DNA of 64,000 nt from Candidatus Woesearchaeota archaeon (GTDB lineage Archaea > Nanobdellota > Nanobdellia > Woesearchaeales > JACJVW01), in contig JACJVW010000001.1 of NCBI GenBank assembly GCA_020637435.1, forward strand, positions 433,060 to 497,059, given 5' to 3'. How positions within the stretch are numbered: position 1 is the stretch's first letter; each line of letters starts with the position of its first letter. Position numbers and translations under genes: made by a program. Below are positions 8,466-64,000 of this stretch, piece by piece. Below the pieces are notes generated by a model. The model was given only the letters and a program-made list of their open reading frames with translations, searched no databases and was not told the origin of the DNA.

Positions 8466-8755
8466 TGAAGAAGTATCCAAAAATAGTGCAATGTGACAAG
8501 CGAGGTCAGATAGTCATACCTAAAGACCTCCGAAATGAGCTCGGCATAGAAGAAGGCACTGGTTTTTGGATGTATGCAATCACCGATGAAGGTATTCTGC
8601 TCAAGAAGGTCGAAAACCCTGAGCTTGGGGAACACACCGACATGCTCCATGAGCTCAATGACAAAGCAGACAAGATAGATCTCTCACGTGAGAATCTTGG
8701 ACAGTCCATCGAGGAATACAAGAAGAAGAGGCAGGGCAACCTGGATGTAATATGA
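8465..8755 (+). CDS. AbrB/SpoVT/MazE-family swapped-hairpin DNA-binding protein (96 aa)
   Basis: KRGQIVIPKDLRNELGIEEGTGFWMY is the AbrB-type N-terminal beta-barrel motif, followed by an acidic C-terminal tail. Its stop overlaps the giant ORF start by 4 nt (ATGA at 8752-8755). Confidence 0.75.
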   Translation: MKKYPKIVQCDKRGQIVIPKDLRNELGIEEGTGFWMYAITDEGILLKKVENPELGEHTDMLHELNDKADKIDLSRENLGQSIEEYKKKRQGNLDVI

Positions 8756-11700
8756 GGGGGCGCACGATACTTGGTTGGTGTATGATACTTTTCGTGCTAG
8801 CTTTAAGCCTCAGCGCTTCTGCCCAGGAGCTTACTCACACCCAAGTCGAGATCGGCAAACCGGTCACCTGGAAGAAAGTCGTTTCAGACGTACCTGCAGA
8901 CGGCACGCTCAATGTCTATGTTGACAAAGATGCCCGGGACGTCAGAGTGGATGGAAGATCTGACATCACTATCAAAGAAGCTTCGATATGGGACACCTTC
9001 GTCCAAAGCTTTGGCTCAGTGACAGGTTTTGCAGTAAGCGAAGCAGGTACTGAGATCGAGTTTGAAGCGAAAGAAGGTGACGCATACACTATTGTCTACG
9101 AAACAGAAGCACCTAAAGTCTACGAATCACAAAAACAAAAGGACGATAAGCTCATCAAAGAGGTAACCATCTCCTCAGACTATCATTATACTGACATCCT
9201 TAGTTACACAGACATTCCGGAAGTGGAAGCAGAGCAAATCAAACTCTACCATAAACAGGGTGGCATCTTCTTCAAAAATAAAATAGACATCACTTCCGAT
9301 GAATCTTACCGGGTAGAATTCATGGATACCAACGGCAATGGACTTATTGACCGTGTAAAATGGGTAACGCCCCACCTTTCCACCCAGGAATTCGAAGTGG
9401 AAATCACAGTCCTTAACGTTCAGAGCTATCCGCTCATAGGTGGCAACTGGACTATCCGGTTTACTACCGCAGGTACCGCAGACCTCGCTATAAGTGCCTA
9501 CATGGGTACAACCTATGGTGAGACGCTGCCGGATGACCTGTGGCCTATTGAACTTCGTTGCGATGATACTCCGTTGGCCCCTATCTTCAACGGAACTCAT
9601 GTCGTCTATGAGGACTTCTCCTGTGATGGTGTCGCCTACCACACAGTGAAGGTCCTCACAGGCGGTAAACATTACCAGGAATTGACCTTCGGCGATGCGA
9701 CAGCGCATGCACAAAACGATGCGGGCACCGTCACGCTCTCATTCCACCATGCGGCAGGATGTAGTGGCCCCTCCACGATAACATCCTCCTCACGGGCGAA
9801 TGAGAGTGATAGTATTTACATCCTGGTTTCTTATTCGAATGATGAGAACGGCGCTGAGAATACGATAGTGGACATTACAGGCTATGTATCTGGCTGTTCT
9901 CTGGCTTCACCCGGTAATTGCTTCGGCGATGACACGCCTGCTGCGAGCACATCATCCTGCTTCCTAAGCAATTTCCCCATTCCAACAGGCCTGAGTGATT
10001 CTGAATCTGTTACAGTATCTGTCCAGAATAGCACTGGTTCCGTTGCAACAACATCCTCTACGCTCTATATCAATCATGCCCCAGGTGTCGCGGTCGCAAT
10101 CACCCCTGCAAGTCCCCTCATAGGTGAGCAGATCACTTGCACCGGAACCGTAACAGACACGGATGCAGGAGACTCTTTTACAGCAAGCTATCTCTTCGAT
10201 GTGATGGGTTCAATTGTCGACAGCGGCAGTGTGGTCTGTTCAGGAACAACCTGTACCGCCACCTGGACTTCCTCAGGGGTCAATGATGGCGACACCATAA
10301 CCTGCAATATGACGGCAATGGACAGTAATGGACTTACTAGTCCTCAGGTCGCGTCATCTGCTGCCACATTCACCACAATAAGCATCAGTCCAACTTCAGC
10401 AAGTATAGAACGTATGGGTACGCAGACCTTCACGGTCTCTGGTAGTACAGCAACTCCTTTTACCTGGAACCTTTCGGGAACTCCCGTGAATGGTTCAGCA
10501 TTCAATCCCGCAAACCCTACTACCTCGTCTGCGACAGTACAGGGACTGGAAGTGGGTTCCTATGTAGTTAATGTAACTGACAACAACGGTGCATGGACCA
10601 CAGCCACATTGACTGTCACTGACACGAACGCTCCAGCGCCTGCAACGAATGTTGTCGCGGCCGACACTCCTGGCGACCAGGGGGATAATATCACGATAAC
10701 CTGGAGCATCTCTACCGATGACGGCCAGGGAGACAATGATGTAGCCAACTATTCTGTCCTAAGGTCGACCAGCCCTACATCAGGATTTGCTGCCGTTTCT
10801 GGAGCGCTTCCCCCAGGCACAGAGATTTTTGTCGACACAACAGTCCTCCCTGATGTCAGCTATTATTACCGGGTCAGGACCATGGACATCAGTGGCAATT
10901 TTGTCGATTCTGATATCTCCGGACCTGTCAATCTCAACGGCCAGCCCATCATGCAGGAGATAATCTATTACCCGTTAAGTCCGTCTGCCCAGGATAATAT
11001 AACCTTTGTAGCATTCGCGACAGATACCGACAACGAGACGGTGACGATGAACTACACGGTAGAAGTCACTGCCTTTGACGGAGGTACTAACTATCAGGAA
11101 AGCGGAGAGGCCTGGTGCTTCTTCCTTGGTCACGGCATGAGTCAATATGGTACGACATATGCAGAGCCGACAACTGAATGTACGGTAACACTAGCATCCA
11201 GCCACTTCACCAAAGCGGACAAAGTGACTATCACTTTCACCCCTCATGACGGACAGGAGGCAGGAGACCCGCTCTCGCTAAATGGATTCATCGTTATCAA
11301 CAACAGCAGGCCAAACGCATCCAATGTATTTGTCTCGCCGATAAATCCTAACCAGTCCTCTGTGCTCAGCTGTAATTATACGTTCACCGACTTCGATGGA
11401 GACATGGAGAATACGTCCCAGGCTCGTTTCAGATGGTACATCAATAATGAAGGACTCAACGACTTTGTACTTGTGCCTGGCTACACCAGCCGGACAATTT
11501 CAGGAATCTTCGACAAAGACGACATTATCAAATGTGCAGTACAGGTCAAAGACATTGATTCCAGTTGGTTAAAACAACCTCTATACGCATCCGCATATGC
11601 TACATCAACAGAGATCACAATAAAAGACAATGCGATCCCTCAGATCATAGATTACTGGATCTCTGCAAATAACACTAACCCTGCGGCACCAGGAGATGAC

Positions 11701-14700
11701 ATCTACTTCAATGTAAGCTGGGTCGACTACGAAGACCCAAGCGACCAGGCTAGGATGTACGTCTGTGACGCATGGGAAGATATTGAGAATCAGTACGATG
11801 GTGGAACCTCTGAGATCTTCTTTGGTGATGATACAGCAAATGCTGATCAAGAAGTAAGACTCTATACGAACGAGACTGGCCAGTACGTCTACACCCTGGC
11901 AATCAAACCTACAAAATTCATCGAAAACTCCTTTACTACATACAGTCCAGGCTCCACCGTCACCGCAGGAGATGTCTTCGTAGGCTCAGCACTCCTCGAC
12001 TTCCCTCCTTATTACACTTATTATGATGCTGACCACAGCGACACATATACCCTCGGTGAGTCCATTATATGGGATAATCAGTCCATGGGAACGAACAAGA
12101 CATACAACGCGCAATACGACGTAGTCATCTACGGTGATGAAGTGGTTGATGGCAGTTCTCTAGTCAGGTTCAACGAGAGCAATATCCACACCTTTTATGA
12201 CTCAGACAGCAGCGGGACTTACACTACAGGAGATGACATCTACCTTGACAGCGGTGCAACCCCTAATCAGGTTGATGCAGGCGATGTAAGGGTAAGTATA
12301 GTCTCCAACCGGCCCTCTGCGGAGACACTTTCAACCTCCTTCATTTACGACATCATCGTCCGTGAAGTGGACAATATCGGTGATACGACCGGTCTAGTCA
12401 TAGCAAGGGACAATGACAATACCTTCACCCTTGGAAAATACAACTATTTTGTCCCGCAGTATAATGCTCAACCACTTCCTGGAAAATATCTCATGTTCAC
12501 CATCTGCATAGATGTTGATAACGACGATACTTGCGACTCAGATTCGGACAATTTCAATGATATGGTCTTTTTCAAAGCAGATCCCGCACCAGGAGCAGGT
12601 TATCAGGCGTACAATGGAACGGGCTCAGTGCACTACAACCCGGATATCAGGTTCAACTATGGTGCAAGCGAAAGCCCAGGTTGTGCGGGAGCAACCTACT
12701 GCAGCACTCCCAATTCTCCTCTCAACGATATTTCCTGCACCTATGAAGCGGTCTTCGAAAATTCGTGGAACAACACAGTCAATCTCAAGGTCTGTGATGA
12801 GCACGATGCTTGCTCTGTCAACAGAGTAGCAAACTTCTTTGTGAATCACATCCCTATAATTTCAGATCTTACCATAAACAGCAGTATAGACGGTGTCAAT
12901 ATTGACGCAGTCAATAATTTCAGCACTAGCAGGAACCTTATATGTAATTACACTGCTTCAGACAGTGACCCGCAAGGCAATACTATCGGCTTAAGCAGCG
13001 TCATCTGGTTTAAGAAAAGCCAGAGCGCAAGTGTCTTCCAGCGTGCGATAGTCCCAAACAGCACTTTACTCGCGAACAGTAATACCGAACCAGGAGACCA
13101 GTGGATCTGCCAGATCACGGTGCATGATGATTTTGATAATTCGCTAGGGACCAACTCATCTCCTGTAACGATCCTAAGTGCGCAGGGTGACGAACTGACC
13201 ATCCTATCAGTTTTTGATGATTCCTCCTTGACCGCACCTGTACTGTTGGATGAAGACGTTACCATCGAGGTCTCCTTCCTCTACACGGGAACCGATGATG
13301 TCAAAGTCTATGTCTGCAACTCTTCGTCCATAACCTCGGGTGGCTGCCTTGATCACACCTACGCAGCCACGGATTTCGTCTCGGACAACCCGATCAATGT
13401 AAGCTGGGAGGCAGATGCTCCTGGAACACACAGATACTACGTCAAGGTCTGTGATGAGTCATTCAGATGTTCAGCGGTGGTAGGGACGTCTACTGAATAC
13501 AATTACACCGTCAATCAGCGTCCTATTGTCAACTCAACGCTCCTTACGACGTATACTGGTTCGACCAACTACACAGACGCTGACCCCCTCAACTGTACCT
13601 ACATAGGCAACGACCAGGATAGCATAGGTACGGGACTAAACGCGACCTACACCTGGTTCCTCAGAAGATCAGGAGGGGCGTTCCAAAAGATTGCATTACC
13701 TCCGACAACCGCAACGATCGCAGAATCACAGACTATTCTCGGCGATGTATGGATCTGCCAGGTTGACCTTTCAGATGGTTACCATAGCGCGGATGCGCTC
13801 AACAGCAGCCCCGCATTCATTCAGAGCCTAAGTACGGGAATTATCGGCATAACTGATGTGAACGATACAGTAGGCAGTGTCGTTGAGCTCGGAGATTCCA
13901 TCGACATCGACGTCTACTGGCAGTCTGCTACCGGCGATAACGCAAAGGCATTTATCTGCAATTCCACGAGAGTGCTCGCAAGCGGTTGTCTTGATGGTAC
14001 CATTATGGAGACGAGTTATACCTCAGCAAATCCTATCTCTGCATCCATCACTCCGACAATAGGGGGGTTGCAGTATTATTATGCCATGGTCTGTGATACC
14101 TCCTGGAACTGCTCATATGTCCAAAGCTTTGACAGCAAAGGCAATAGGTTGAATTACACGGCAAACACCCCCCCTGTCATCGGATATGTTACCGTCAACA
14201 CGACTACTGACGGACTTACCCCGGACGGTCTGCAGAATTACACGGTGGACACACACCTGATCTGCAATTTCTCCATCTCGGACCCGGACATGCTTTCTGA
14301 ACCAAGTTTTGAGATTGCATGGTACAAAAATGGCCAGAAAGTAAATTTCCCTTCAGTCACTGCGATTTCAAAATGGAATACGCAGGGAGGCGAACTATGG
14401 AGTTGTGGGGTCACTCCTATAGACGAATACGGAACTTATCCGGAAATGATTTCACAAAGTGTATTCATCACGGGCATCTCTAATGAAATTGTAGTAGTTG
14501 AGAATATCACTGCTAACTACAATGAGAGCAACCCTCTACTCAATGGACAAGCTGTAACCTTCAACCTAAAGGCGATGAGCCTCAACAGCGTCTCCTGGTT
14601 CGCATACATATGTAATACCTCAAACATAGACGTCACAGGCTGCTGGGATGACCAATTCGCAACAATATCGACTGCAACAGAGGAATCCACAGCATCCTAC

Positions 14701-17700
14701 ACCACAGTCTACGAAGATCACGGAGTGATACCTTATTATGTACTGATCTGTGATACCACGTTCAACTGTTCACAGGTACAGGGAGTTGACACTGCCCTTA
14801 ATTTCACGGTTAACCATCGCCCAGTCCTTACTTATGTGCGGTTGAACACGACAGATCTTACATCAAACTTCACCAGTGACCGCAATCTGATCTGTCAGTT
14901 ATCTTACAATGACCCTTACAGCTACAACAATGGCTACAACATTTCATACACATGGTACAGGAATGGCATCCTGCAGGCATACCCTAGTAGCATGGATGTG
15001 CTCTCCAACACACAGACACAGACGGACGATGAGTGGTACTGTGAAGCTCAGGTCAGCGACGGCTATCATTCAAGTGATGTGGTTGCCGCGGCATTTGTCA
15101 ATATCAGTGACTACGCGCCAGGTTCCGTCTGGATAACGAACTTGACGACAAACAGTAATTCCAGCTCTTACCTCAGGTACCCTTCCAATGTTACCTTTAA
15201 TATTACCTGGAACTCGACAGAGATTCTTGATGTGCGGGCATTTATCTGCAGCAATAGCAGTATCGGCCCTTCTGGATGTCTCCAGACTACTATCGCCCAA
15301 AGCGGATACACCCGCAGTAATCCGATAGAATTGACCTACCTAACAACCAATAATGAATCAGGACCTACTGACTACTATGTGAAGCTCTGTGACACCTCCT
15401 TCAATTGTTCAGGAGTCGCAGGCATTAGTATACCTCAATACTACTACATCAATCAACCCCCTATTGAGACCGCTGTCTGGATGAACACGACAGACGGAAC
15501 AGACAATTTCACCAGTGACAGGAACATCATCTGTAGATATACTGCTATGGACCGGGACGATGTAAATGCGAGCGACCCACTTATACCTGAATATTATTGG
15601 TGGGTGGGATCTACCGATGACAATATGGAGTTGGTGGAAACAAGCACAAGCACACAAGTACTGACAAACAACAACTATGAACCTGGTTACTATGTACAAT
15701 GCGGCGTTCGCACTTCCGATGGGATGCACTTTGGAGACGGAACTTTCAGCCAGGCACAACAGATAAGCACCGAAGTAGTAGAAGGGATAGTTATCTCAAA
15801 TGTCACCCACAACTCGCCAACAGAGACGCCGGTGACCGAAGGCAACGTTATCCTATTCTCCATCGACTGGTACAGCAGCTACGGCCTTCCTGTAAGAGCA
15901 CACATCTGCAGCTCACCAGACTTCAACTACAGTGGCTGCTATAACACTACTCTTGCTGCATCAGGTGGTTTCTCAAGCACAAACCCGCTCATAGTAAGCA
16001 TGGCCACTAATGGATCGGAGCCGACCATACAGAACTACTGGGCAAGGATCTGTGACAACAGTTACAACTGTTCAGAGCCGTTCCCTGAAGCAGGAATAAA
16101 TCTGAATGTATCCGTCAACCACCGACCTAATGCGGTGAATGTGACTGTCAGACAATTTGATCAGTACAGTACTACGGGATTGCTCATCTGCAACTACTCT
16201 TTTAATGACACGGATATGGACCCGGAGAACGCAACTTTAGCTACATTCCTCTGGTACACAGTAACCAACAGCGTCAAATCCCTTATACCAGGACAGAACG
16301 AAAGGTTCCTCGAGGACGCGTTCAGTTATGGAGATGAGATAACCTGTAGCGCAAGAGTCGCAGACAACCATTCAGTCAGCGACAATCAGTTCAGAGATGC
16401 CAATAATACCATAAGATTCAGCGCGATACCACCTAAACCCGTCCTTTGGAATATGCCCTTTGCAGTATCTGCAGCAACAGGTAATAGGATGATAGGGTAT
16501 TTCGGTATACCTAACGTCAATTACTCAGTCCACCTGCGGCAGGAATTCAATGTGACAACGCCCGTCACCAACACAACCTCTACGGATAGCAGGTACTTCG
16601 GTTTCGCTTTCCCGGTCTACAAGGCTGCCAATAAATCTGCGTTCGTCATAGTTCACCGCGACGATCTTGACCTGTTCCAGACTGGAAGATACATCTCCTA
16701 CGACAACCATAACCGGACATACTTTGCACGATACAGGATAACAGGCAACGAAGATCTCTTCGACGATACTTACAAGGTATTTACTTCGCCTGCACTGGAG
16801 CACAATATTACCTCCTCGACCGCGATTTTCGTCTACAACAGTACCTATCCTTCAGGATGGTTCAATATGTCATTGCCATCCTTATTCGTAGGTGAAAATA
16901 CCATCAGGATCAGGGGACTGTCATCCTATGGCAATGGACCTTACCTGAATCAGACCCTCTACCTTGATCTGGAGAACCCGACCATAAACATATCCAAAAT
17001 AGGCAACTACAGTTTCAGCCACATGTCGACCATCTACTGGTCCGTCTATGACAATATCTCCCTTAAAGACATGCTCCTCCAGGTTTCTAACAGTTCAGAA
17101 ATAGTCAACTACACACTCTACGATTACAACTTCAATGACACTGACACTCAGATAGTCTGCGATGGCAATCTGACAGACCAGGACTGCCGGGTGGAGATCT
17201 ACCTCAATAATAATACCCTGCACAACCTCACATTCACAGTCACTGACAGTTCAGGAAGAAGCACGACTGAAGTACGCTATGACTACGTCGTCAATACCTC
17301 AGTGCTCCCGGTCATACTTGTCTACCAGGGTTTCATAGATGATGCTCTTGACGAGCACATCCCCGCGACCATCGCTACCAATACAACATTCACCGCAAAC
17401 TGGACCTCTGATGCACATGCCATAACACGTTACTACGAAGTCAAGATAGTAGAATATGAAGGAGACCTTCTTGTCAAAGACATGACCAACTGGACTGAAG
17501 TTGGCAAAGAGAGAAATTGGACTGCGACCGTGCCTGCACGAAACCAGTATATCTACAAATTCCATGTAAGGTCTCTATACCAGGATCTAAGCTACAGCGA
17601 AGAATTTGTCAGTGAGGGCATGTTTTATTTCGTGGATGAAGCTCCGGTCTGCATTGATTGTGTCAGATTTGTAGGCACAGATAACGGCGGGCAGACATTC

Positions 17701-23988: not shown

Positions 23989-24015
23989 TTCTAATCAATT
24001 ATTTTTATTAACAGT

Positions 24016-44907: not shown

Positions 44908-44990
44908 GCCTTTATTTTTTCATATACTTCTTATTTGGTTCACTAGACTACACATCAAGAAGCGAACCCATCAACAGAATCATGTAGATG

Positions 44991-46100: not shown

Positions 46101-46189
46101 GATGTTACACCTCTTCATATACGATTTTATTAATATCACCATAAAGGTATTTAGTATCCTTTTATGTATACTCATATATAAATGTTTCC

Positions 46190-46440: not shown

Positions 46441-46450
46441 AGCTGTACGG

Positions 46451-47008
46451 ATGGGAGAAATCAGCTACCTGGAAGAAGCTACAATAAAGAGAGTCATAAC
46501 TAGTGTCCAGAACTCCCGCGACCAGCTGATGATACTCCTTCTCTACGAACTTGGATGCAGCCTCAAGGAATTGCTCAACATCAGGCTCAGAGACATTGAT
46601 CTTGAAAAAGAACAGATTTCTATCACTTCCACATCCGGTACGAGCAGACAAGTCAGAGACAGCCTGATTAGCGCTCCCACAAAGGAACGTATAAGAAACT
46701 ATATAAACGCCAATAACCTTGAAAATCGTAAGACCGCATACCTGTTTACATCCTCCCACAACAGGCAGATGACCTTGCGAAGAGCGACCCAGATTCTCTC
46801 TTCTTCATTGGAATCACAGGGCTTAGGAGACCTTAGTCCGCAAGTGATAAAATATTCACATATTGTGAACGCCTACCGGAGAAATGTACCCATCAGTCTT
46901 ATAAGAGAACAGGTAGGTCTGACCAAAGAAAGACTCATTTCGATCCTATTGAGTATTGATGAGCCGAACGTCGGTTCGTACAAAGAGTTCCTGGAGGGGG
47001 TGCTCTGA
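46451..47008 (+). CDS. Tyrosine-recombinase (phage-integrase family) catalytic-domain-only protein, 185 aa, without a core-binding N-domain. The canonical C-terminal Tyr is not at the expected spacing
   Basis: Colinear with the XerC/D catalytic domain: RDQLMILLLYELGCSLKELLNIRLRDIDLEKEQISI (Arg-I region), KTAYLFTSSHNRQMTLRRATQIL, and LSPQVIKYSHIVNAYRR (HxxR region, with K in place of the first R). In LGHxxxxTTxxYTH the Tyr is replaced by LISILLSI. The stop overlaps the ATG of giant gene 2 by 1 nt. Confidence 0.55.
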   Translation: MGEISYLEEATIKRVITSVQNSRDQLMILLLYELGCSLKELLNIRLRDIDLEKEQISITSTSGTSRQVRDSLISAPTKERIRNYINANNLENRKTAYLFTSSHNRQMTLRRATQILSSSLESQGLGDLSPQVIKYSHIVNAYRRNVPISLIREQVGLTKERLISILLSIDEPNVGSYKEFLEGVL

Positions 47009-56000: not shown

Positions 56001-59000
56001 TCCCATTTTTGACTACCGTCTCTACGAGCAGATATTTGACAGTCCGCTTACCTTCATCAGCCAAGGTGTCATCTTCGACGGCCTAAACAATCAGTACTTT
56101 GAGGACTCGGTGACGGGTGACTGGAACGATGACGGATGGATGGATACTATCCTCGCTACAGACACTAACCGTCTATATGTCCTCCTCAATAACAAGACAG
56201 GCGGTTTCGAGCTTGGACCAGCCCTTTTTGGAGACCCCAACACCCGTGGCAAAGACGTGGGAGATTTCAACGAAGACGGATTGCAGGACTTCGCCTACAT
56301 GGAATCAGCAGGTATCCTCTATATTTACTTCTCAAATGGAGACGGAACATTCAGGATATACCAGGAAGGGTTCAGCAAATCTGCCCAGGCATGGTCCAAT
56401 TGCCTCGCCGTAGCTGACTTCGATAATGATGGTCATGATGACATAGTAGCAGGCGACAACAATGAGATATATTTCCTACAAGGTAATGGTCTGGGCAACT
56501 TCACAAGCCTGGGCAATGTGCTTAATATGGGGGCCACAAACTATGTTTCGTGCGACAATATTGATGCGGACAGAGACGGTAACCAGGACCTGGTCTTCTC
56601 CCTCTATGGTGAACAGCAACAAGACTACTACAAAGGTTACGGAAATGAGACTTTCACCTATTTCTCAACTTTCGGTAATCAGCAATCGATGGGTATAGAA
56701 GCCCCCGCATATCTTCCTACTGTAATATCACACTCGTCAAGAGCAGAAAAATATGCAAATTCCACAACACAGTCAAGGATCCTAAATACAGGAGCGGCCC
56801 CATTCAAAGGCTATCTCTTCACGCAGATAAGATTCTGGAATAGTTCAGATGTAGTCTGGGAACCTATCGCAACCATAATCAACGAATCAAATGCCTCTAC
56901 TGCAAGAGAGGTAGGCCGTGCATCTGCACTGAACATCAAAGATGCGTTCGACTCGTACAGTCGTTGGAATGTATCGAGTAATAAACTAGGTCAGTACCAA
57001 GTCGTCGTAGAATTCAGGCACCTTAATGGCAGCATTCATGTTATGGACGACGGAACTATGCTCAATATGACCTACAATTTCTCCGTAGAGCTTGATACCC
57101 TGGGACCCGACATACAGGAACTAAGGAAGAATCCATCTACAACGGGCTTTGGCCAGGAAGTTATCATTGAAGCCGTTCTTGAAGATGAAGGCAATGGAGT
57201 AGATAGTGCATGGATGAACATAACACGTCCGGACAATGTGTCTGCAATGTTCAACCTGACACAGATATCGACCAGCTTGTGGAGATACACCTACAATGAC
57301 ACCTGGATTTGGGGCAATTACAGCATCCAGTTCTACACCAACGACACTGGCGGTTACAATTCATCACTAAACTCATCCTTCTTTGTAAGAGGTTCAGTAC
57401 TCATGAACGCTACTACCGAGCAGCTTATCTACAATCCAAATCAGACGGTAAGGCTTACCAGCTCATTCAGCTGGTGGAACCAGACCTGGCACTACCGGGT
57501 ACCACTCATCATGGAATCAGCTGATTTCAACAGGTACAAATCGATCGTAGGTGGATACCTCAACTTTACGGAAAAACTTGCAGAATTGGATTGCGGCGCG
57601 ACCGCATGCTCAGGAGAGTTCATCAACAGCAGCTTGCGTGTCATAGAATATGGCACGGATGGTCAACCCATCATATATAACAGCAGCAAGACTGGGCAGG
57701 AAGCGTATACGATACCCTTCCTCTTTGACTATGAAGCCGGATACCAACGCATAACAAATGCATATGCAGACATCAGATTCAATGCTCCAGGCTTGACTGA
57801 CAGAGACGAAGAAAGGTACTTCATGATCTATTTCGATATCCTTGAGTTTGGCAGTAAGGCCATCTCCCAAAGGACAGATACGCTCATGCCCTCAGATGGA
57901 AGCATATTCTCCTTCATAGCGGTAAGTGATGATGATAATGATGTGTATGTCATAGAGAATTATCAGAATGGCACATGGGGTATCATCGATGACATAGGAG
58001 AGCCTTCAGGCACCAACAACCGCCGAGCCATCATCCAGGGAGATTTCGACAACGATGGTGATGAGGATATCATACTGGGAGTGCCGCAGAATGGTTTCGA
58101 AGTGTATTTCTACAATCATACGACTCCGGGAACCTTCGTAAATGAAGGGGTTATCGCAAACATAACTGATGGAAGCAGCGCAATCTCCATGGGTGGTGCA
58201 GTCGGTGACTTCAACGGCGACGGAAACCTGGACTTCGCCATGTCACCCAATGATATCTATTTTGATGTCTTCTTCGGCGACGGAAAAGCACAATTCATAC
58301 TTGACGCAACATACAATATCTGTGGAGCTAACGACGCCCGTGGGCAGGATGCAGCTGACGTGGATCTTGACGGTGACATAGACATAATTGCAGCTTGTAC
58401 GGGAAACCCTGATCTCTACATTTTGACCAACGATGGAACAGGAACATTCCTTGCTACCAGCCTTACCGTGACAAATGTGCTCAACGACCCTTACGGTCTT
58501 GCGGTTGCGGACTTCGACAACGACACCCTGCCAGACATAGTCGCATCCTACGGCGATACCGACACCATGTATTTTTACAAAGGTAACGGCGATGGAACAT
58601 TTAACAATGGCGGTGCGCTATCGATAACGACACAGGGTTCGTTCTATCCGGGGCTCGATGCATTCGATTTCGACAATGACGGCCTACAGGACCTTGTTGC
58701 TGCTGGCCGATTCCCAAACAATATCTACTACTTCAAAGGTGACGGCGATGGAACATTCACCTACATCAAGAGCATTGGCACAACAAGCGATGATACCTAT
58801 ACCGTGTCCGCGCCTATGGGTACAATCCCTTCATCCTTCAGAACATTGACTACAGAAGAGACGACCAACGTCACGACGCTCTCAAGTATCGTCAACGAGG
58901 GATCAACAGACCTCGGCGGATACCTCTGGGTAGGCATAGACTATCATAATGGCAGTGAATGGTCGCTCAATGACACCATCATTAATGACTTATCCATGTA

Positions 59001-62000
59001 CAATATGACGACCATAGCTCCAGGTGGACTACTTCTGATAAAAGACAGAGTGGAAAAAGCAGGCAATTGGTTCACAAACAGTAGCACCTATGGGTGGTAC
59101 AGATACAGGATCGAGCTCAGGGATATCTACGATAATCTCATCATCGGTGACAATGGTTCCGTTTGGTCAACCACAGCCCAGATCGCATTGAACACGACAG
59201 CGAACTTCTCGCTTGAACCCGATCTTGACGGACCGGATATCCTCTCCTTCGCTGTCAGTCCAAATACCACAGGTTATGGTGATACAGTCACCATTTCAGC
59301 ATTCCTAAGCGACCCCTCAGGTGTCAACAATGCGACAGTAAACTTGACATATCCCAATGGTACAGTGAAAACGCTGCAGCTCATAAATATTTCCAGCTAT
59401 CAGTGGCAGTATGTCTTTAATGATACCTGGAAACGTGGAACGCACAACTTCTCCCTAATCGCTGAAGATATCTACACCAATATCAATACTCAAAACACGA
59501 GCCTCGATATCCTCTCCAACCTTAGCATAGAGATTGCTACCTTGCAAGATACCTATCTGCCCGATCAGCTCGTTACGCTGACCAGTCCATTCTCGTGGTG
59601 GAACAGCACATGGACCTATCGTAAACAGGTTACTATGACTGCACAATCGTACCCTCGGCATAACGCTTACATTAAGCAGATCGTCAACCTGACCTATGAG
59701 CTTGAACAATTGGGCGTTACAGGAACCTTCGAGAACCAGAGCATACGGATAGTTGAATATAATGCCGTCACGGGTGAACCTAAGATATTCAACGGTTCAG
59801 CAAGTGAAAAGTACATAGTGCCGTACAAGCTTACTCTCAACAGCACGCACGATAGCATCAGTAATGCGGTGGTAGCCCTTGAATGGAATGCAAATGCGAC
59901 CACAGAAGCCAATCAGCAAAGAACATACTTCATCTACTATGACATACAGGAAAATTCTCAGAAGCCTGCAACAACATACCTAAGCACCGTCTACAACAGT
60001 CCATGCACAGAAGACTACGTCATCACCGGCGATGTGAACGGAGACCTTTACTATTTAAGATCCTACAGGAATGGGACCTTTGGTCCGCAATCATGGGTAG
60101 GCGATGATGACAGCAACAACTGGGGTATCGGAATCGCTGACTTCGACAACGATGGTGACTGTGACTTCGTCACCGGCGGCAATGATGGTTTCATTGACTA
60201 CTATGAAAAGACCGGTTCAGGAAATTCCTTCTCCGCTACAACGAACCTGCACTTTTTCAACGATGGGGGATACGGTATGGACATAGCCGTCGCTGACTAC
60301 GATAACGATGGTAACTATGACTTTGTAATCTCAGGCAACAACAATGTATTCACTGTTTTCCTTGGTGATGGGGACGGTACATTCACCTCATCTACCTTCA
60401 CAGGCTACGTCGAAGAAGGACGCGGTAAAGATGCCGGTGACATGAACAGAGACGGGTTCATGGACTTTGTCGCAGGCTATGACCTCGGTATGATTTTTGT
60501 CTACTACGGCAATGGAGACGGCACCTTCAATGAATCGGACATCAACTGGGACATAGGTAATACGGCATACGGAATCTCGGTAGCTGACCTTGACAAAGAT
60601 GGCAATCTTGATATCTGTGCTGCACAGAGCAACGGACAGATAAGATGCAGGTTCGGTGATGGTCAGGGTAACTTTGGAAATGAGATCATCACCGGCGCAG
60701 ATCCCGGAGACTACGCTCCGATGGATGCATGGGACATCAACCTTGACGGCTACATCGATATAGTTGCAAATTTCTATAGTAGTGAACAAGTCTTCGTCTA
60801 CTTCGGCAACGGAACAGGCTATCTTACCGCATCGGCATACAACCCGGTAGGTACAGCCATCGGCACGAACAGGATGGGTATCGCTGGCCCACTCATCAAA
60901 GACCCTGAATCTACAGTAACGTACCAAAGCGAGCTCAATGCAGAGAGTCCACTAAAGTCACGAGTACTCAATACTGGTTCCACATCATCAGGTTCATACA
61001 CTTTCATCACCATAGAATACTTCAACACTACAACCGGAACGTGGAACCACACGGCACACATAGTCAATGATCTTCAGAGCTACAGCATGAATAACCCTCT
61101 CGGCATCGGCGGATTGCTAAATTTGCAGGCAGAGTTCGCGACAGCTGGAGCCTGGAATACTTCTAGTTATACCAATGGTACATATCGCGTCCATGCTGAG
61201 CTTCGAAACTTGTACAATGAGACCCTCCATAACGACGATGGTTCAGCTGTCAATATAACCTACAACTTTACGCTTAAATATGACACAGACCCACCTGCAG
61301 TAGAATATCTAAACATCAATCCAGCAGAGACTGGATTCGGAAGCGACGTCATCGTGACCATAGACCTTGATGACGAAACAGGTGTCCACAATGTCTCTGC
61401 GAACATCACGTATCCAAACGGCACTCAATTCAGAGGGGATTTCGCTAAAAGGACGACAAAAAGATGGTCTTTCACCGCATCAGACCATTGGATTGTAGGC
61501 ACCTACAATGTCAGCATAAATTATAATGATACGCTTGGCTTTGCCAATCAGACCAACACCAGTTATCTCATCAATACGAGTATCAATCTGACCATCGCTA
61601 CAGAGCGCAACACGTACTTCGGAAATGAATCAGTTACATTGACCAGTCCATTTGTGTGGTGGAATACGTCCTGGAACTACAGGAACACCTTTACGGTCGA
61701 TCCAAGCCCTGCAGTCAGGCATGATGTCTATGTGCAGAAAATGTTCAACTTTACCGACCTGCTTACCCAGCTTGGCGGCAACGGTATCTTCGACCTAAAT
61801 TCCATACGCATAGTCCAGTACAACAGCGATGGCACGCCCAAAGTATTCAACGCATCCAGAAGCGGCGATGACAGATATAACATACCAGTCTCGTTTGCAC
61901 AGGCTTCCGGGTTCCACACCCAGACCAATGCGTATGGCAAGGTTGAGTTCATAATCAATGGTACGCTGACAGCGAACACGCAAAAGACCTATGCGATCTA

Positions 62001-64000
62001 CTTCGACCGCGAAGAGAACGGTATTAAACCGGTCACATATCTTAGCTACAATGAACCTGAAGAGTTCTACATAGTGTCCAACGACAATGGAAATGTCTAC
62101 CAGCTCCTTCACAACGGAGGTACGAGCTTCGATAGTCCGGTCATCGTCATCGACCTTCCGGGAACTGCAGATGAATCTGCACGAGGTGTAGGCGTTGCCG
62201 ACTTTGATCATGACGGAGACTATGACATAGTTATAGGTGGAGACAATGCGGGAAGTTACGCTCAATTTTATCTCTACAGGAACAATGGAGATGGTTCTTT
62301 CACGCCAATCTGGACTTCAGCCCCAGAGTTCGTCAATGCATTGATAACTCCTATAGGCGTAGGTGACTTCGATGGAGATGGTTACTTCGATTTCTCCGTG
62401 GGAGGAAATAATGATAATCTCCTCGTCTATTTCAACGAGAATGGTACAACCTTCACAAGGACGAAAATTGGAACATCCAACGTGGACCCCAACACTAGAG
62501 GCAAAGACGCTGGCGACATTGATGGTGACGGATTCGACGACCTTATATATGTGGAAAACTCTGACAATGTCTATATCTACTTCTCCAATCAGGACAGAAC
62601 TTTCAGCAGGTCTGCCCTTGACGCTGACGCGATACCGGCCGACCCCTACTGCATAGCGGTAGCGGATTACGACAACGATAACCTTCTCGATATTCTCATC
62701 TCAGGAAACAATGGTGACATATACTGGTACAGAGGTAACCTTACAGGGTCGCTTGGCTACTTTGACAATGATGTGTACACCGGTACTGATGTCAATAATT
62801 ACCAGGGTTGCGACAACTATGACTTCGATGATGATGGCAATATGGACTTCATCATGTCCAGATGGAACAGCGATGAAACATGGTACTATAGGGGAGACGG
62901 AAACGGCGGATTTACAGGTACAATGCTTGGTGACAGTTCTGATGGCATAAATGACGCTATGGGTGCGGCAGCTCCGGACAGGCACGAAGGAAGCATGACC
63001 CTTGCGTCACCAGAAGAGAAGTTCTCATCTACTACTGCATCAAAAGCGCAAGATATCATAGACACACGGTCTAATCTGTATGTCTACATGAGCGTCCAGA
63101 GATGGAATTCATCAGATTCGATATGGGAGAATACGACCTCCATCGTCAACAGCACCTACAACACGATATTCGCAGGAAGCCTTCTCGACCTCAGTTCACT
63201 CTGGCAGGCAGCAGGAGCATGGAATACAACGAGCAGTCCGGAAGGATGGTACCGAGCCTATGTAGCGCTACGTGATCCAGGAAACAAGACCCTTCTCAAC
63301 TATGATGGTAAAGCTCTAAACGCTTCTTACAACTTCAGCATCTCTACTGATAACGTAGGTCCTTCGTACACGAACTTCCTGGCATTCCCCGACCCTGCAG
63401 GTTATACAAACAATATCACAGTCCGGATAGACGCTCAGGATGAGACAGGTATCGGTTCTCTATGGGCAAACATAACCTTCCCCAATGGCACCGTATTGAC
63501 CAAAAATATGACACCGGTAACTGCCGCAAGGTACACAACCTGGTTCAACCAGACCTGGCGATATGGAAGCTACAAGATAGAAGTGTTCGGAAATGATTCC
63601 AATGGCTTCCAGAGCAACACATCCAAGATTATTGTTGTAGCAGCAAATGCGACTTTCTCCACCTTGCTCAACAAACAGCTCTTCTATCCCAACGAGTCCG
63701 TAGTCTTAAGCGGCACCTTGAACAATGGTCAGTATGCTAACTTCACCTATTATCTCAAGATGGGTATTGAGTACTACAATACGACCGACTGGGTCTTGAT
63801 TGATATGGTTGTCAATGAGACCACACCAAGGAAATTAAACGTCACCAAGACCCTGAATCTGGGAGCCGTCTGGAACGCGGCCGGAGCATGGAACACTTCC
63901 CTCAATAAATCGGGCACCTACAGACTTTTCACCAGATTGACAGATGGTGCACAGTATAATGGTACCGAACTTTACCTCCAGCAGATAAACACAACTCAGA
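47008..64000 (+). CDS. Second giant secreted surface protein, more than 5660 aa, open at the window end. It has a signal peptide, an internal module homologous to the giant-1 N-terminus, Ig-like domains, and 5 or more mega-repeats of about 690 aa each (Ig-like 'NITYPNGT', DUF2341 'WWNxSWxYR', ConA-like, FG-GAP beta-propeller)
   Basis: Read through by hand in frame 1 from the ATG at 47008 to position 63999 without a stop, and absent from the ORF track, which lists only closed ORFs. The signal peptide is MRKRGNNKTLTVILLALLLTIFTISAAP. DUF2341-like motifs include WLYRLPLAV...DIRFGTDN...YMYYGNP, ITSPYQWWNTSWRYR, LTSSFSWWNQTWHYR, LTSPFSWWNSTWTYR and LTSPFVWWNTSWNYR. Many FG-GAP repeats are present (VADFDNDGDFDILVG, VGDFNEDGLQDFAY, VADFDNDGHDDIVAG and others). 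Confidence 0.85.
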   Translation, partial: MRKRGNNKTLTVILLALLLTIFTISAAPNIDIRIDMATENRSVGDTVQIGISTYINNVIVLSLPAKVFISGPEGSSELATSDTFRGLRIGNFTPTRAGTYTITAQVIINGQPYEQSDEVEVAQPPYAFTTEYLVNGTLLQAHITQPADRTVRINLIRESQIIPLCEAECAADCTFSCPLPELDSAIIHLQTQIDAEPYLYSTTDIVTAAMKSIECEFVAPKYGLYTTIQLPQEDLLEAYITGDRTEQITDGTFTTDAPGAYTLMMLYLQDNTTVSCSKDFTVSADGDEARLNLIDDYFDPIYAKTYTLYNIEKEGHANICDEAWYIDDTTVQTISFPANLSRGQLLCKSAPANMSKADAETYVTFLRSGAATFFNVGFSSFESYAYILKDSVAKEILGPYNKTIHTQNFTTIIGPPALYAVVHKNMAESETDLSVGPVLVIPMEENASISYINGTTLFIREKTALQREDIFQSQGVRFVQELQLKPREDTITETDKQILSDAQTIELISPELKKIHLPAGIIPKETPHGMYMLHEIFYGNASRVSRITIIGTEANLSISEGKQKNATKGDTVRFVHTIVNSIRDGSAIIEVQIGDTAAQVSVNVIEGSIEVPITDTNNNGIPDLGIMLPGEDKEILITAIVPKNASAGNHTIPITVQDLQRSIGNTVYDLIHVEADLFEPVYSNDLDLYAIEEHEGQLQILIQNNFMDEKEAQLTLHIGNNSIVENIIVPKDSTFMFTYPVEDLSSNEKIEAVLTAFGESNKNNNQRTFLRAQRWTEDRSYRKTLYLTEKEHQDHEQYRFRASAARDGMDLSSIRLTYATDTTEGIGYAYPLFSITAYDEKQVDLIIELSMLPKNTVVPLYIYYDKSEASIPPNTSAHLPEIIIDNTNRTVQMNGRWGSDYVSREYYGSGYLHDFARGKGEKSVIYGLQVPKSDYEVYMTYPTDPTFSKHVPVSITGTEGTQTIYIDQDRRPQDWTYLGVYALDSNSQITISNAKTEGLVVADAFRLVQVGSYERFSDEEKWFIPVQKKTEYISIFENSTLKINTTDMTNITVTTSMQTNYTLEENSVLLAPISDLTVMVRGKVCKVSCSYKENTYVIEVIRKQSLLLKPFPSVKKGQDETEVLNLSAYLRPTTRLQITNSTINASLKEKVLHLGPSPAGVHRIILIATDTNVTEQLPALLVQVAPKDTEQTIQGHAEIGHPVQWKKIVINDTTQLPVDAANIRVNNGSSYSFRVDERIIDAQEMEKAKEDREILKKLKAFEEEKQNSNFIRAMSISVQSLAAQTQVQTDIDLTKVQNTTLVMEENATSYIIEYTTPAPDIAIRSESEKDFTKKKDIVVFSNVTFHYYNVTSYTDVDESLPEQLHLYWHRQEGSVDIIHDPRLKELLDVQLIDTNANGLIDKVQWLTPQLSEQNFSLEIDLTILNLQSYPTLYKNWTVLFNTTGTANLTIYTLNTSWSEFYNDLSSTHDDLTFLDVRCGATSRYDEIILLLENGSQKSITTVAPTDQFVVDGLRVADWNCSQTARWDNQIITTGVHIQRFEFGNDILYARNYGFLLFETFESYANNTNATDWIDYTDDSPVTQGETALTYDNGTTTSIVIAAAAEEFTEYNGTGALAWHSYEVKGELWIEGNTSGNYEINIYAYSDFNAPVSRDYYSLEFIPSYTGGFRLNGDSNTFVINNPTINTSVTPQFNVTYSFRFLVMNNGANRDLYAMMWKSNETEPSSWQAQARDVLAANSAGTIAFSVANAKVHFDNIIVQNATSIPQITIISPPYGPHDVIDNLYFNVSVDKDAANCNVTINTTSYNMSQWNTTHWYMNVTLGVYGTLPVTFYCEDDFGNSGNKSTTIRLGTSAITILAPLNETTTDYTPLLNVTLNDTYDVWYSLDYGANSSIIPSVDNFTTILGPLNQSQHLIYVYINDSGVIDYTYVYFSIDVPVPNATMTLYDEGINPSAADDPLVDIKLQSIYAYTYRYSCNTTAWTEWRTWTGNGCSGTCDWYVNFNLTNASLGCNVSDGPKWVYAEVRNYFNETGYANDSINIDLSPPRINLTTPLNYSLATTQKVTFGVNASDHYSSVQYCQLYVNGSICGGLISPIVDDVIKNVTKNITTDCNFVGTGEYVWRMYCRDDTNSHWSNYSEYRTLFVDVDGPVINASLSTNKIGFNQSILINATITEQYSNISNVSANITYPNGTSRLFAMSNTSSTDYYYYFTDTWGGGLYQVRVRANDTAGWKTTSSVKRFNVSVNASVYIRTELGIYAPGMQVNLTQRMPGWIDENWLYRLPLAVTEESGTDLIQHQIRITLNTSALITEGKMNADCSDIRFGTDNASSLYFWLESGCNTDYTTYWVKMDELDALDTKALYMYYGNPTATNASNGTRVFQWFDDMETFTGWVAEGTGSVAQSTANVYERAYAQIKQTNCDPAGGSKNLGFTLNRTNWLVEFHRYRGSGDIASCTVDRTGVETAADNGYSGAFQHGGGSDIWVDRRTGGGATVLDSSSIIDILDTWHISQLLLTDDEIRHVILDTNYTIVEQTQAIDTTYTTFDQVAIRGGRPYYIDMIKIRKYASAEPTFTIGSEQGVFENRSQVSGSDNFTAYYYLSVYNESGGSFLLDKHVVEFLANTTEPLLLLNPMWLGYGAWNTGAYYDGVYQARATLTDPNNNTLINEDGELLESRFNFTIDRYPDILGAGITPTFNGWGESFTLQANVTYPLPINRVWANITWANGSVQVVNLPLAEDITYEATLTDIWDTGLHSILFASNNSAGYTSTEGPYGFSINGNSSITLATVKDLYYPNKVIEITSPYQWWNTSWRYRVIINLDQKGYDRDDIWMRHNINISDILASSGVSGTLDYNSLRLVEYTAQGGAATYNGTLTDDTKYLVPFEVDQLKDYDSLYNAKIHLEWIANGTTESAISRQWALYFEIDESNTGVFYSIERPTEFIGYPGTTSEHLFAEVYGDGTFGAETLIVDLLGDNQMYGSDPVADFDNDGDFDILVGYSEDTGPIFDYRLYEQIFDSPLTFISQGVIFDGLNNQYFEDSVTGDWNDDGWMDTILATDTNRLYVLLNNKTGGFELGPALFGDPNTRGKDVGDFNEDGLQDFAYMESAGILYIYFSNGDGTFRIYQEGFSKSAQAWSNCLAVADFDNDGHDDIVAGDNNEIYFLQGNGLGNFTSLGNVLNMGATNYVSCDNIDADRDGNQDLVFSLYGEQQQDYYKGYGNETFTYFSTFGNQQSMGIEAPAYLPTVISHSSRAEKYANSTTQSRILNTGAAPFKGYLFTQIRFWNSSDVVWEPIATIINESNASTAREVGRASALNIKDAFDSYSRWNVSSNKLGQYQVVVEFRHLNGSIHVMDDGTMLNMTYNFSVELDTLGPDIQELRKNPSTTGFGQEVIIEAVLEDEGNGVDSAWMNITRPDNVSAMFNLTQISTSLWRYTYNDTWIWGNYSIQFYTNDTGGYNSSLNSSFFVRGSVLMNATTEQLIYNPNQTVRLTSSFSWWNQTWHYRVPLIMESADFNRYKSIVGGYLNFTEKLAELDCGATACSGEFINSSLRVIEYGTDGQPIIYNSSKTGQEAYTIPFLFDYEAGYQRITNAYADIRFNAPGLTDRDEERYFMIYFDILEFGSKAISQRTDTLMPSDGSIFSFIAVSDDDNDVYVIENYQNGTWGIIDDIGEPSGTNNRRAIIQGDFDNDGDEDIILGVPQNGFEVYFYNHTTPGTFVNEGVIANITDGSSAISMGGAVGDFNGDGNLDFAMSPNDIYFDVFFGDGKAQFILDATYNICGANDARGQDAADVDLDGDIDIIAACTGNPDLYILTNDGTGTFLATSLTVTNVLNDPYGLAVADFDNDTLPDIVASYGDTDTMYFYKGNGDGTFNNGGALSITTQGSFYPGLDAFDFDNDGLQDLVAAGRFPNNIYYFKGDGDGTFTYIKSIGTTSDDTYTVSAPMGTIPSSFRTLTTEETTNVTTLSSIVNEGSTDLGGYLWVGIDYHNGSEWSLNDTIINDLSMYNMTTIAPGGLLLIKDRVEKAGNWFTNSSTYGWYRYRIELRDIYDNLIIGDNGSVWSTTAQIALNTTANFSLEPDLDGPDILSFAVSPNTTGYGDTVTISAFLSDPSGVNNATVNLTYPNGTVKTLQLINISSYQWQYVFNDTWKRGTHNFSLIAEDIYTNINTQNTSLDILSNLSIEIATLQDTYLPDQLVTLTSPFSWWNSTWTYRKQVTMTAQSYPRHNAYIKQIVNLTYELEQLGVTGTFENQSIRIVEYNAVTGEPKIFNGSASEKYIVPYKLTLNSTHDSISNAVVALEWNANATTEANQQRTYFIYYDIQENSQKPATTYLSTVYNSPCTEDYVITGDVNGDLYYLRSYRNGTFGPQSWVGDDDSNNWGIGIADFDNDGDCDFVTGGNDGFIDYYEKTGSGNSFSATTNLHFFNDGGYGMDIAVADYDNDGNYDFVISGNNNVFTVFLGDGDGTFTSSTFTGYVEEGRGKDAGDMNRDGFMDFVAGYDLGMIFVYYGNGDGTFNESDINWDIGNTAYGISVADLDKDGNLDICAAQSNGQIRCRFGDGQGNFGNEIITGADPGDYAPMDAWDINLDGYIDIVANFYSSEQVFVYFGNGTGYLTASAYNPVGTAIGTNRMGIAGPLIKDPESTVTYQSELNAESPLKSRVLNTGSTSSGSYTFITIEYFNTTTGTWNHTAHIVNDLQSYSMNNPLGIGGLLNLQAEFATAGAWNTSSYTNGTYRVHAELRNLYNETLHNDDGSAVNITYNFTLKYDTDPPAVEYLNINPAETGFGSDVIVTIDLDDETGVHNVSANITYPNGTQFRGDFAKRTTKRWSFTASDHWIVGTYNVSINYNDTLGFANQTNTSYLINTSINLTIATERNTYFGNESVTLTSPFVWWNTSWNYRNTFTVDPSPAVRHDVYVQKMFNFTDLLTQLGGNGIFDLNSIRIVQYNSDGTPKVFNASRSGDDRYNIPVSFAQASGFHTQTNAYGKVEFIINGTLTANTQKTYAIYFDREENGIKPVTYLSYNEPEEFYIVSNDNGNVYQLLHNGGTSFDSPVIVIDLPGTADESARGVGVADFDHDGDYDIVIGGDNAGSYAQFYLYRNNGDGSFTPIWTSAPEFVNALITPIGVGDFDGDGYFDFSVGGNNDNLLVYFNENGTTFTRTKIGTSNVDPNTRGKDAGDIDGDGFDDLIYVENSDNVYIYFSNQDRTFSRSALDADAIPADPYCIAVADYDNDNLLDILISGNNGDIYWYRGNLTGSLGYFDNDVYTGTDVNNYQGCDNYDFDDDGNMDFIMSRWNSDETWYYRGDGNGGFTGTMLGDSSDGINDAMGAAAPDRHEGSMTLASPEEKFSSTTASKAQDIIDTRSNLYVYMSVQRWNSSDSIWENTTSIVNSTYNTIFAGSLLDLSSLWQAAGAWNTTSSPEGWYRAYVALRDPGNKTLLNYDGKALNASYNFSISTDNVGPSYTNFLAFPDPAGYTNNITVRIDAQDETGIGSLWANITFPNGTVLTKNMTPVTAARYTTWFNQTWRYGSYKIEVFGNDSNGFQSNTSKIIVVAANATFSTLLNKQLFYPNESVVLSGTLNNGQYANFTYYLKMGIEYYNTTDWVLIDMVVNETTPRKLNVTKTLNLGAVWNAAGAWNTSLNKSGTYRLFTRLTDGAQYNGTELYLQQINTTQ

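Follow-up and report, generated by a model that had tools for sequence, protein, structure and literature searches.

The closest described systems are the giant proteins of cultivated nanohaloarchaea, which are rich in immunoglobulin (Ig)-like domains, bear LamG domains, are anchored at their carboxyl terminus and were tied to interaction with the host (PMC6642349, PMC10266531). They comprise SPEARE from Candidatus (Ca.) Nanohaloarchaeum antarcticus (5,998 amino acids, aa), others of up to 8,553 aa and SVXNc_0300 from Ca. Nanohalococcus occultus (9,409 aa), and their defining part is a cytoplasmic VirB4/TraG-like ATPase accompanied by a second ATPase gene downstream (PMC6642349, PMC10266531). 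Halomucin from Haloquadratum walsbyi is a secreted glycoprotein of ~9,000 aa, read as a protective mucin-like coat (PMC6642349, PMC11573180). A UniProt survey identified Laminin_G_3 as the commonest domain of archaeal proteins longer than 5,000 aa, with function unknown and a location mostly near the amino terminus (PMC11573180), while a survey of giant genes reported few archaeal proteins above 10,000 aa (bioRxiv 10.1101/2023.11.21.568195). Here we describe a 64,000-nucleotide stretch (the window) of contig JACJVW010000001.1 from a Candidatus Woesearchaeota archaeon, which carries the genes of two giant proteins, named G1 and G2. Both are very probably giant exported surface glycoproteins, and their role as adhesins or tethers of a DPANN archaeon for other cells or surfaces is the reading we favour with moderate confidence. 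Giant Ig/LamG surface proteins have been described in DPANN before and G1 is already deposited at NCBI as a hypothetical protein of Candidatus Woesearchaeota archaeon (MCB9362274.1); no description of such giant proteins in Woesearchaeota was found in the available literature. The ~300-aa module common to the two proteins, the Cys-stalk/transmembrane (TM)/GW anchor of G1 and the coupling of a recombinase-like gene lacking active-site residues to a G2-type gene appear to be undescribed.

G1 (8752..23988, + strand), a predicted type I membrane protein, is encoded by a single ATG-started open reading frame (ORF) of 5,078 aa (560 kDa, isoelectric point (pI) 4.3). The G2 frame (47008..64000, + strand) is open to the window end and codes for 5,664 aa within it; an in-frame stop is found at 46960-46962, none follows up to the window end, and the first ATG is at 47008. 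The uninterrupted frames are 15.2 kb long for G1 and at least 17.0 kb for G2, and at the base composition of the window, runs of this length without a stop would arise with probabilities of ~1e-119 and ~1e-133, respectively. The two frames make up 50.4% of the window. The first-pass annotation, which had reported two giant single ORFs of 5,078 and more than 5,660 aa filling about half of the window, each with a signal peptide and the first one with a TM helix followed by a cytoplasmic tail, is borne out in all these points. DNA-level tandem repeats were not found in the window, so that an artefact of repeat collapse during assembly is unlikely. Both genes are also present in independent assemblies, namely Logan contigs (one of them of 221,299 bp) and a 782-kb contig of an NCBI metagenome-assembled genome (MAG); an exact search with 57 nucleotides (nt), aimed at the rest of G2, gave no match in GTDB genomes or JGI metagenomes.

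Among the genes tabulated for Logan contig SRR12358676_115595, G2 is listed with 9,335 aa from an ATG at 47113. The sequence GGAGGGGG precedes ATG 47008, with a GGAGG motif 8-14 nt before that ATG, and the signal peptide MRKRGNNKTLTVILLALLLTIFTISA is encoded only if translation begins there. Because ATG 47008 alone provides a signal peptide in addition to the 9,335 aa of the table, full-length G2 is most likely ~9,370 aa and its gene most likely ends ~11.1 kb beyond the window. This length is just under the 10,000-aa line and within the size range of the largest reported archaeal proteins, close to SVXNc_0300 (9,409 aa) and to halomucin (~9,000 aa). Halomucin has ~9,159 aa. The two giants together take up ~43 kb of DNA in a genome of probably ~1 Mb, a cost that implies strong selection.

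The amino terminus of G1 is a signal peptide (aa 1-24, MRGRTILGWCMILFVLALSLSASA, 8752..8823, + strand, as are all features of G1 and G2 below) with a hydrophobic segment at aa 5-24. It is followed, at the membrane-distal end of the protein, by the G1 copy of the shared module (aa 25-325, 8824..9726), which has no Pfam or NCBIfam match. The next ~1,000 aa are mixed sequence with isolated copies of an Ig-like 'A' domain and lead to a tandem array (aa 1362-2560, 12835..16431) of 5.5 units of ~217 aa that are 25-37% identical. Each unit has two Ig/PKD-like domains with conserved Cys pairs. The structure model of a unit (pLDDT 82.3) features two Ig-like domains, and structure comparison finds a resemblance to the CBM/FN3-like modules of cellulases 2c4x and 3pdd. 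The ~1,200 aa after the array have Ig-like domain starts of the D-x-T-x-P type and weak FN3-like and Big-like matches. They are followed by a lectin-type region (20122..21030) composed of a CBM_4_9-like segment (aa 3791-3861; 17-20 bits, under the cut-off of 25.9) and a Laminin_G_3 domain (aa 3962-4093; 30.4 bits for a Pfam cut-off of 27.6). Big_9 and Cadherin_4-like segments at aa 4151-4232 also score under their Pfam cut-offs. Pfam and NCBIfam gave no match in the first 2,600 aa of G1, a PDB sequence search with G1 found nothing, and NCBIfam was of no use for either giant.

The membrane-proximal stalk of G1 (aa 4440-4679, 22069..22788), analysed with a motif scan, is rich in Cys. It carries a MopE-type motif above the Pfam cut-off (Cu-binding_MopE, 32-34 bits), a Gly/Ser linker and two C-x-D-x-QN-x-GE-x-DVDCGG-x-C repeats. 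The TM helix (aa 4680-4709, 22789..22878; hydropathy 2.97) is followed by R/K-rich residues and aligns with the TM helices of the orthologues. The cytoplasmic tail (aa 4710-5078, 22879..23985; 369 aa, 43 kDa) is formed by seven repeats of ~41 aa, which align free of gaps with the consensus G-x-s-x-e-e-I...L...GWP-x-E ('GW' repeats). These repeats score as RecX-type three-helix units (RecX_HTH1 27.5 bits for a cut-off of 26) and show a DUF7626-type match too. In the tail, neither Pfam nor a motif scan detected an ATPase domain, a helicase domain or a Walker A motif. Its relatives were missed by a word search and in JGI metagenomes, and were found by tblastn of the flanks of the Topo VI loci (see below).

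G1 shares with the nanohaloarchaeal giants a DPANN host, a Sec signal, a mostly Ig-like ectodomain that is thousands of residues long, the size class of 5,000-9,400 aa, a laminin-G domain, a C-terminal TM helix and a cytoplasmic part. The likeness is drawn from the published descriptions of these proteins. The host here belongs to a non-halophilic Woesearchaeota lineage, the G1 tail is made of seven three-helix repeats, and no ATPase gene lies downstream of G1. Since it has neither the tail ATPase nor the downstream ATPase gene, G1 is not assigned to the nanohaloarchaeal VirB4-type family; by analogy it may work similarly to those proteins as a tether. G1 also belongs to the archaeal proteins above 5,000 aa that have a Laminin_G_3 domain, with the particularity that the domain is membrane-proximal in contrast to the common layout. 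The tandem Ig-like stalk at aa 1362-2560, like the Ig-like spacers of G2 described below, is reminiscent of fibrillar adhesins. The adhesive domain of the latter is distal, a position occupied in G1 by the all-beta shared module, while the LamG/CBM-like modules are close to the membrane. Bacterial fibrillar or giant adhesins (SiiE, LapA, the MpIBP RTX-adhesin, and AgI/II and pilins of Gram-positives) differ in export route and anchor: G1 combines Sec export with a TM helix and tail instead of a type I secretion system or sortase, and homology is at the level of fold only.

G2 has a different architecture. After its signal peptide, the amino-terminal portion displays weak filamin-like and Big-like matches, followed by a Golvesin_C domain (aa 882-1008, 49651..50031; Pfam 73.8-76.7 bits for a cut-off of 31.6), the G2 copy of the shared module (aa 1190-1553, 50575..51666), and a Big_13-like Ig domain (aa 2178-2240) with a DUF2341 domain (aa 2315-2386) identified with Pfam (53539..54165). 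DUF2341 reaches 66.6-70.6 bits (cut-off 23.4). Big_13 scores 18.8-21.9 bits at aa 2178-2240 for a cut-off of 27, and 28.9 bits with a piece from the carboxyl-terminal half. The remainder of the visible protein (aa 2563-5664, 54694..63999) is an array of ~4.5 super-repeat units of ~695 aa with 26-44% identity in internal BLAST comparisons. Each unit combines Big_13-type Ig-like domains with an FG-GAP region (FG-GAP_3, 273.3 bits over 17 stretches; FG-GAP, 33.2 bits). The 18 calcium-type DxDxDGxxD motifs of G2 are grouped in four clusters of 4-5 (aa 2980-3186, 3679-3887, 4378-4576 and 5065-5272), spaced by 48-58 aa within clusters and by ~695 aa between them. Each unit probably forms one integrin-alpha-like calcium-binding propeller, whose blade number, presumably seven, is judged from its span of ~350-400 aa. 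Laminin_G had no match in the G2 portion within the window, and a PDB sequence search with G2 gave one marginal match, to CRTAC1 (E 0.0012).

Multiple FG-GAP repeats above threshold and DxDxDGxxD loops ~50 aa apart are common to G2 and the integrin-alpha-like proteins of the FG-GAP/VCBS type. G2 differs from the other members in the regular ~695-aa units in which its propellers are separated by Ig-like spacers, in its length of ~9,370 aa, and in the presence of Golvesin_C, DUF2341 and the Woesearchaeota module. Beta-propellers are likewise present in the nanohaloarchaeal giants; these are WD40/PQQ-like and N-terminal whereas those of G2 are of the FG-GAP type and form a regular array. Of the adhesin-type domains that had been listed for both giants by inspection of the sequence, the Pfam search retained LamG in G1 only and DUF2341 and FG-GAP in G2 only, and left CBM_4_9, Big_9 and Cadherin_4 below threshold; Ig-like folds were confirmed by structure modelling.

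Both giants are acidic (pI 4.2-4.3) and dense in N-x-S/T sequons: G1 has 175 (3.45 per 100 aa), all but one located before aa 4500, and the visible part of G2 has 212 (3.74 per 100 aa). The composition-expected density is 1.4-1.6 per 100 aa and that of the housekeeping proteins of the window is 0.4, ~9 times less than in the giants. Sequons are absent from most of the stalk and from the tail of G1, a pattern expected for an extracellular glycoprotein with the G1 topology. N-glycosylation of G1 and G2 is thus predicted from their sequences. Neither a catalytic Pfam or NCBIfam domain nor a Walker A motif was identified in G1 or in visible G2. Proteins of this make-up, which resemble glycoproteins, string together beta-sandwich domains, include lectin-type modules and have no enzyme domain, agree with the exported, surface-interaction type of protein proposed initially.

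The two giants had been considered paralogous. BLAST between them finds a single significant region, the shared module, with 29-43% identity (E 2e-33), and searches with chunks of the proteins add weak Ig-like similarity (24-30% identity). LamG, the Cys stalk, the TM helix and the tail belong to G1, and Golvesin_C, DUF2341 and the FG-GAP arrays to G2. The paralogy consequently holds for one module and weakly for Ig-like domains, not for proteins whose overall architectures differ, and sequence comparison makes it more fitting to regard G1 and G2 as different mosaic surface proteins with one lineage-typical module in common. The structure model of the module (~300 aa) is an all-beta fold, and its matches are beta-sandwiches. 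It has at least 46 homologs (P0001-P0046) of ~730-2,130 aa with 30-53% identity, to which the G2 copy was also matched by BLAST; none of the 46 has a Pfam assignment over the module region. Note that the longest match of the word search used to find them has 2,133 aa and that the NCBI cluster representative of G1 was not returned, very long proteins being seemingly outside its reach. The named sources of the homologs are mostly Woesearchaeota or Nanoarchaeota and, in two cases, Nitrosopumilaceae (binning unverified). Many homologs have an N-terminal hydrophobic segment and most carry 2-6 sequons per 100 aa. Near-invariant motifs are LNVQSYP, the W and G of GGNW and TPHLS, and the D of the DxNxNG loop is invariant. 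Identity of the module with class II fusion proteins/fusexins was considered and rejected, the Foldseek TM-scores with flavivirus E being ~0.1 and the position of the domain being incompatible with a fusogen. The gene of one homolog, P0011 (2,133 aa), is followed at locus L084 (16289..18402) by genes for a Glycos_transf_4 protein and an oligosaccharyltransferase of the STT3/AglB type, a neighbourhood that fits N-glycosylation of surface proteins of the module type.

Relatives of G1 and G2 are found in related genomes. In the three closest ones (loci L003 and L004, with 72% identity in Topo VI B, and L007, with 70%) the gene that immediately precedes KH-Topo VI B carries at its end a G1-type cassette made of 2-5 QNQGE-x-DVDCGG-x-C repeats, a TM helix and 4-7 GW repeats. 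These ORFs (L003 2..1408; L004 29..1408; L007 1..1272) extend past the fetched loci and are 25-27% identical to G1 over ~510-530 of its residues (E 1e-31 to 1e-44). The synteny of the cassette in the three genomes indicates that G1 is conserved in the clade and is not an isolated oddity. For G2, an exhaustive HMMER search with aa 4465-5664, in a library that did not return G2 itself, gave 40,787 proteins with E<=1e-3, many of them of 3,000-7,000 aa, and 885 with E<=1e-30. The best match, P0051 (5,700 aa, an NCBI record), is collinear with G2 aa 25-5653, shared module included, and another match, P0057, bears the name 'DUF2341 domain-containing protein, partial [Candidatus Woesearchaeota archaeon]'. 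G2 therefore represents a recurring Woesearchaeota architecture.

Topo VI B of the window is 62-72% identical to homologs in MAGs named Woesearchaeota, Nanoarchaeota or Nanobdellota. These relatives, together with the name Candidatus Woesearchaeota of the G1 cluster representative, support the DPANN-type host that had been deduced from the sequence. Many MAG records (binchicken/SRP TPA assemblies; L003, L008-L010 and others) whose title reads 'uncultured Methanosarcinales archaeon' also have Topo VI B homologs with 63-72% identity. They are interleaved among the matches named Woesearchaeota or Nanoarchaeota, for which reason these titles look like placeholders or mislabels.

Each giant gene is overlapped at its start by a small gene. 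The one preceding G1 (8465..8755, + strand; NCBI MCB9362273.1) codes for a DNA-binding protein of 96 aa of the AbrB/MazE/SpoVT family (TIGR01439, 39.6 bits for a cut-off of 28.3; MazE_antitoxin PF04014, 30.9 bits for 24.7), and its stop overlaps the G1 ATG by 4 nt (ATGA). The one preceding G2 (46451..47008, + strand) codes for a 185-aa protein consisting only of the catalytic domain of tyrosine recombinases, its stop overlapping the G2 ATG by 1 nt (TGATG). This protein matches Phage_integrase with 51.8 bits and XerA_Arch with 79.6 bits (cut-off 220). Its alignment to Pyrococcus XerA 4a8e begins at XerA residue 105, and a core-binding domain is absent. Compared to XerA, the catalytic R is replaced by S, HxxR by QxxK and the second H by L; the alignment stops before the Tyr, which by eye is replaced by L nine residues past the second His. 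The small upstream genes noted for both giants are thus present, each overlapping a giant's start codon; the first is of the AbrB family, and the second is no ordinary regulator but a recombinase homolog devoid of active-site residues.

The sole detectable homolog of the recombinase-like protein is P0201 (49% identity), from a 2.5-kb JGI contig, which has the same non-catalytic residues. Its gene (locus L086, 1142..1735) lies directly before a G2-like giant gene in this second metagenome. The giant gene starts 3 nt after it with a signal peptide, and its product is 26% identical to the first 212 aa of G2 (E 3e-16). A gene divergent from the recombinase-like gene (45381..46175, - strand) codes in the window for a secreted protein of 264 aa with no Pfam match, and its L086 counterpart, 40% identical (E 2e-46), is also divergent and secreted. 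The conservation in L086 of the pairing with a G2-type gene indicates that the recombinase-like protein is under selection. It is most plausibly a DNA-binding factor rather than a recombinase. An origin of G2 from a mobile element, to which the integrase match had pointed, was rejected on account of the absence of a tRNA gene (none was detected in the window) or repeat nearby, the uniform base composition, the residues that render the recombinase inactive and the conservation of the cassette.

Adhesion or tethering is the best-supported function because the propeller array of G2 is multivalent, propellers are classic ligand-binding units and both proteins would be exported fibres of beta domains. 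The giants would be Sec-exported, probably heavily N-glycosylated, long cell-surface fibres of two architectural classes. The G1 ectodomain (~4,650 aa) would form a chain of an estimated ~40 beta-sandwich (Ig/PKD/FN3-like) domains, whose reach, estimated with ~105 aa and ~3.5-4 nm per domain, would be ~150 nm. Its far end would present the conserved module, with the lectin-type modules and the disulfide-rich stalk nearer to the membrane. The TM helix and the GW tail would hold the fibre in the cell, the tail presumably docking a cytoplasmic partner or signalling. G2, for its part, would present a multivalent array of calcium-type propellers. Their binding, with glycans or proteins of other cells or of surfaces as ligands, would then be long-reach, multivalent and partly calcium-dependent, and the fibres would serve the contact between cells on which DPANN archaea presumably depend. 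The giant genes appear translationally coupled to small genes of the DNA-binding type (AbrB for G1, the dead recombinase fold for G2), which may control or accompany their expression. Attachment to a host, the nature of the ligand, extension of the fibres from the cell and regulation are all deduced.

Several observations weigh against this proposal. To our knowledge no member of Woesearchaeota has been cultured, so that 'episymbiont' is an inference for this organism, as is adhesion. Only a few lectin-type domains were recognised, and those of G1 are membrane-proximal instead of being at the tip. The fold matches are generic beta-sandwiches, which would be just as compatible with a role in an S-layer or matrix. 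Pfam leaves ~70% of G1 unmatched, and apart from Golvesin_C no family is assigned within the first 2,100 aa of G2. Readings of G2 cover its first 5,664 aa, the last ~3,700 aa being beyond the window. Finally, the presence of the module in proteins labelled Nitrosopumilaceae (binning unverified) means that it is not obviously specific for symbionts.

The alternative that best withstands these data, although unlikely, is a structural or protective envelope in which the giants build a hydrated glycosylated matrix or an S-layer-associated canopy, as proposed for halomucin. The very high sequon density and the acidic pI would suit such a role, as would the occurrence of the module in many secreted proteins of ordinary size, some of which are labelled as from free-living Nitrosopumilaceae. 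Halomucin, a secreted glycoprotein of an archaeon whose size class matches that of the giants, is read as protective (PMC6642349, PMC11573180); the likeness with the giants is one of size. The giants, however, show neither a domain specific for S-layers nor a signature of lattice formation, and FG-GAP propellers and LamG/CBM modules typically bind ligands. A single-copy fibre of 9,370 aa is moreover unlikely as a lattice subunit, and the TM anchor, continued by a long tail of repeats, points to a discrete fibre that is anchored.

The giants could also be scaffolds for polysaccharide capture, cellulosome-like arrays that hold glycans or dock enzymes via cohesin-like modules for nutrient acquisition. 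This is improbable. The CBM_4_9-like and Laminin_G_3 segments and the similarity of the G1 repeat to cellulase modules are in its favour, but CBM_4_9 is below cut-off and the likeness to cohesins is at the level of generic beta-sandwiches with 7-12% identity. In addition, Pfam identified no glycoside hydrolase, lyase or dockerin in the giants or in the products of neighbouring genes.

Even less credit is given to membership of the SPEARE/giant VirB4-type class, which would couple a giant ectodomain to a cytoplasmic secretion ATPase forming a conduit to the host. G1 has a similar topology (signal peptide, Ig-rich ectodomain with LamG, C-terminal TM helix and cytoplasmic region), and the ~9,370 aa of G2, whose carboxyl terminus is located outside the window, match the 9,409 aa of SVXNc_0300. 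The G1 tail is nevertheless composed only of three-helix repeats free of an ATPase or helicase domain and of Walker A, and the genes downstream are those of KH and Topo VI, not of a VirB4 ATPase. The relatives found for G2 are FG-GAP/DUF2341 proteins, and PDB sequence searches yielded no G1 match and just the marginal CRTAC1 match for G2. An assembly artefact or decaying pseudogene arrays, conceivable as giant repetitive genes are easily mis-assembled in short-read metagenomes, are next to excluded by frames unbroken over 15.2 and at least 17.0 kb, by protein repeats that are only 25-44% identical with no tandem repeats in the DNA, and by the same genes in separate assemblies and collinear or syntenic homologs in other genomes.

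A more speculative and rather doubtful reading is that Woesearchaeota possess two undescribed conserved fibre systems, the G1 class with its Cys-repeat/TM/GW anchor and a three-gene cassette of dead recombinase, G2 and secreted protein, which share the module as a partner-recognition element. If this were correct, the G1 anchor could couple events at the fibre tip, at least 150 nm away, to a cytoplasmic partner by outside-in signalling or cytoskeletal docking in the manner of integrins, and a recombinase fold would have been exapted for the expression of giant genes, either as a regulator that binds DNA or as a co-factor. DPANN archaea represent a large share of archaeal diversity. The module, the GW-repeat anchor and the dead-recombinase/giant pairing could be used as markers in MAGs, or as antigens or probes for hosts in enrichments.

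The giant genes are 23 kb apart and the genes that separate them are unrelated archaeal housekeeping genes, as noted in the first-pass annotation. They code for a KH protein, Topo VI B/A, a GNAT protein, NAD(P)HX dehydratase, a class II aminoacyl-tRNA synthetase, an amino-acid kinase, CTP synthase, a malate/lactate dehydrogenase, an aminotransferase, L44e, a UPF0182 membrane protein (39848..42523, - strand; 891 aa, 908 bits), the PAN ATPase and an archaellin-like protein. This 23-kb separation and the conserved synteny that places G1 beside KH-Topo VI make doubtful the additional suggestion of a locus dedicated to surface interaction. The archaellin/type IV pilin-like gene (44053..44676, + strand; Arch_flagellin, 97 bits) and an ORF for a membrane protein of 71 aa (44692..44907, + strand) are located just upstream of the G2 cassette. 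Upstream of G1, a gene at 1087..3003 (- strand) codes for a RelA/SpoT homolog of 638 aa with HD_4, RelA_SpoT synthetase, TGS and ACT domains. In archaea, (p)ppGpp synthetase/hydrolases of full length are rarely encountered, and this long homolog could be an acquisition from bacteria.

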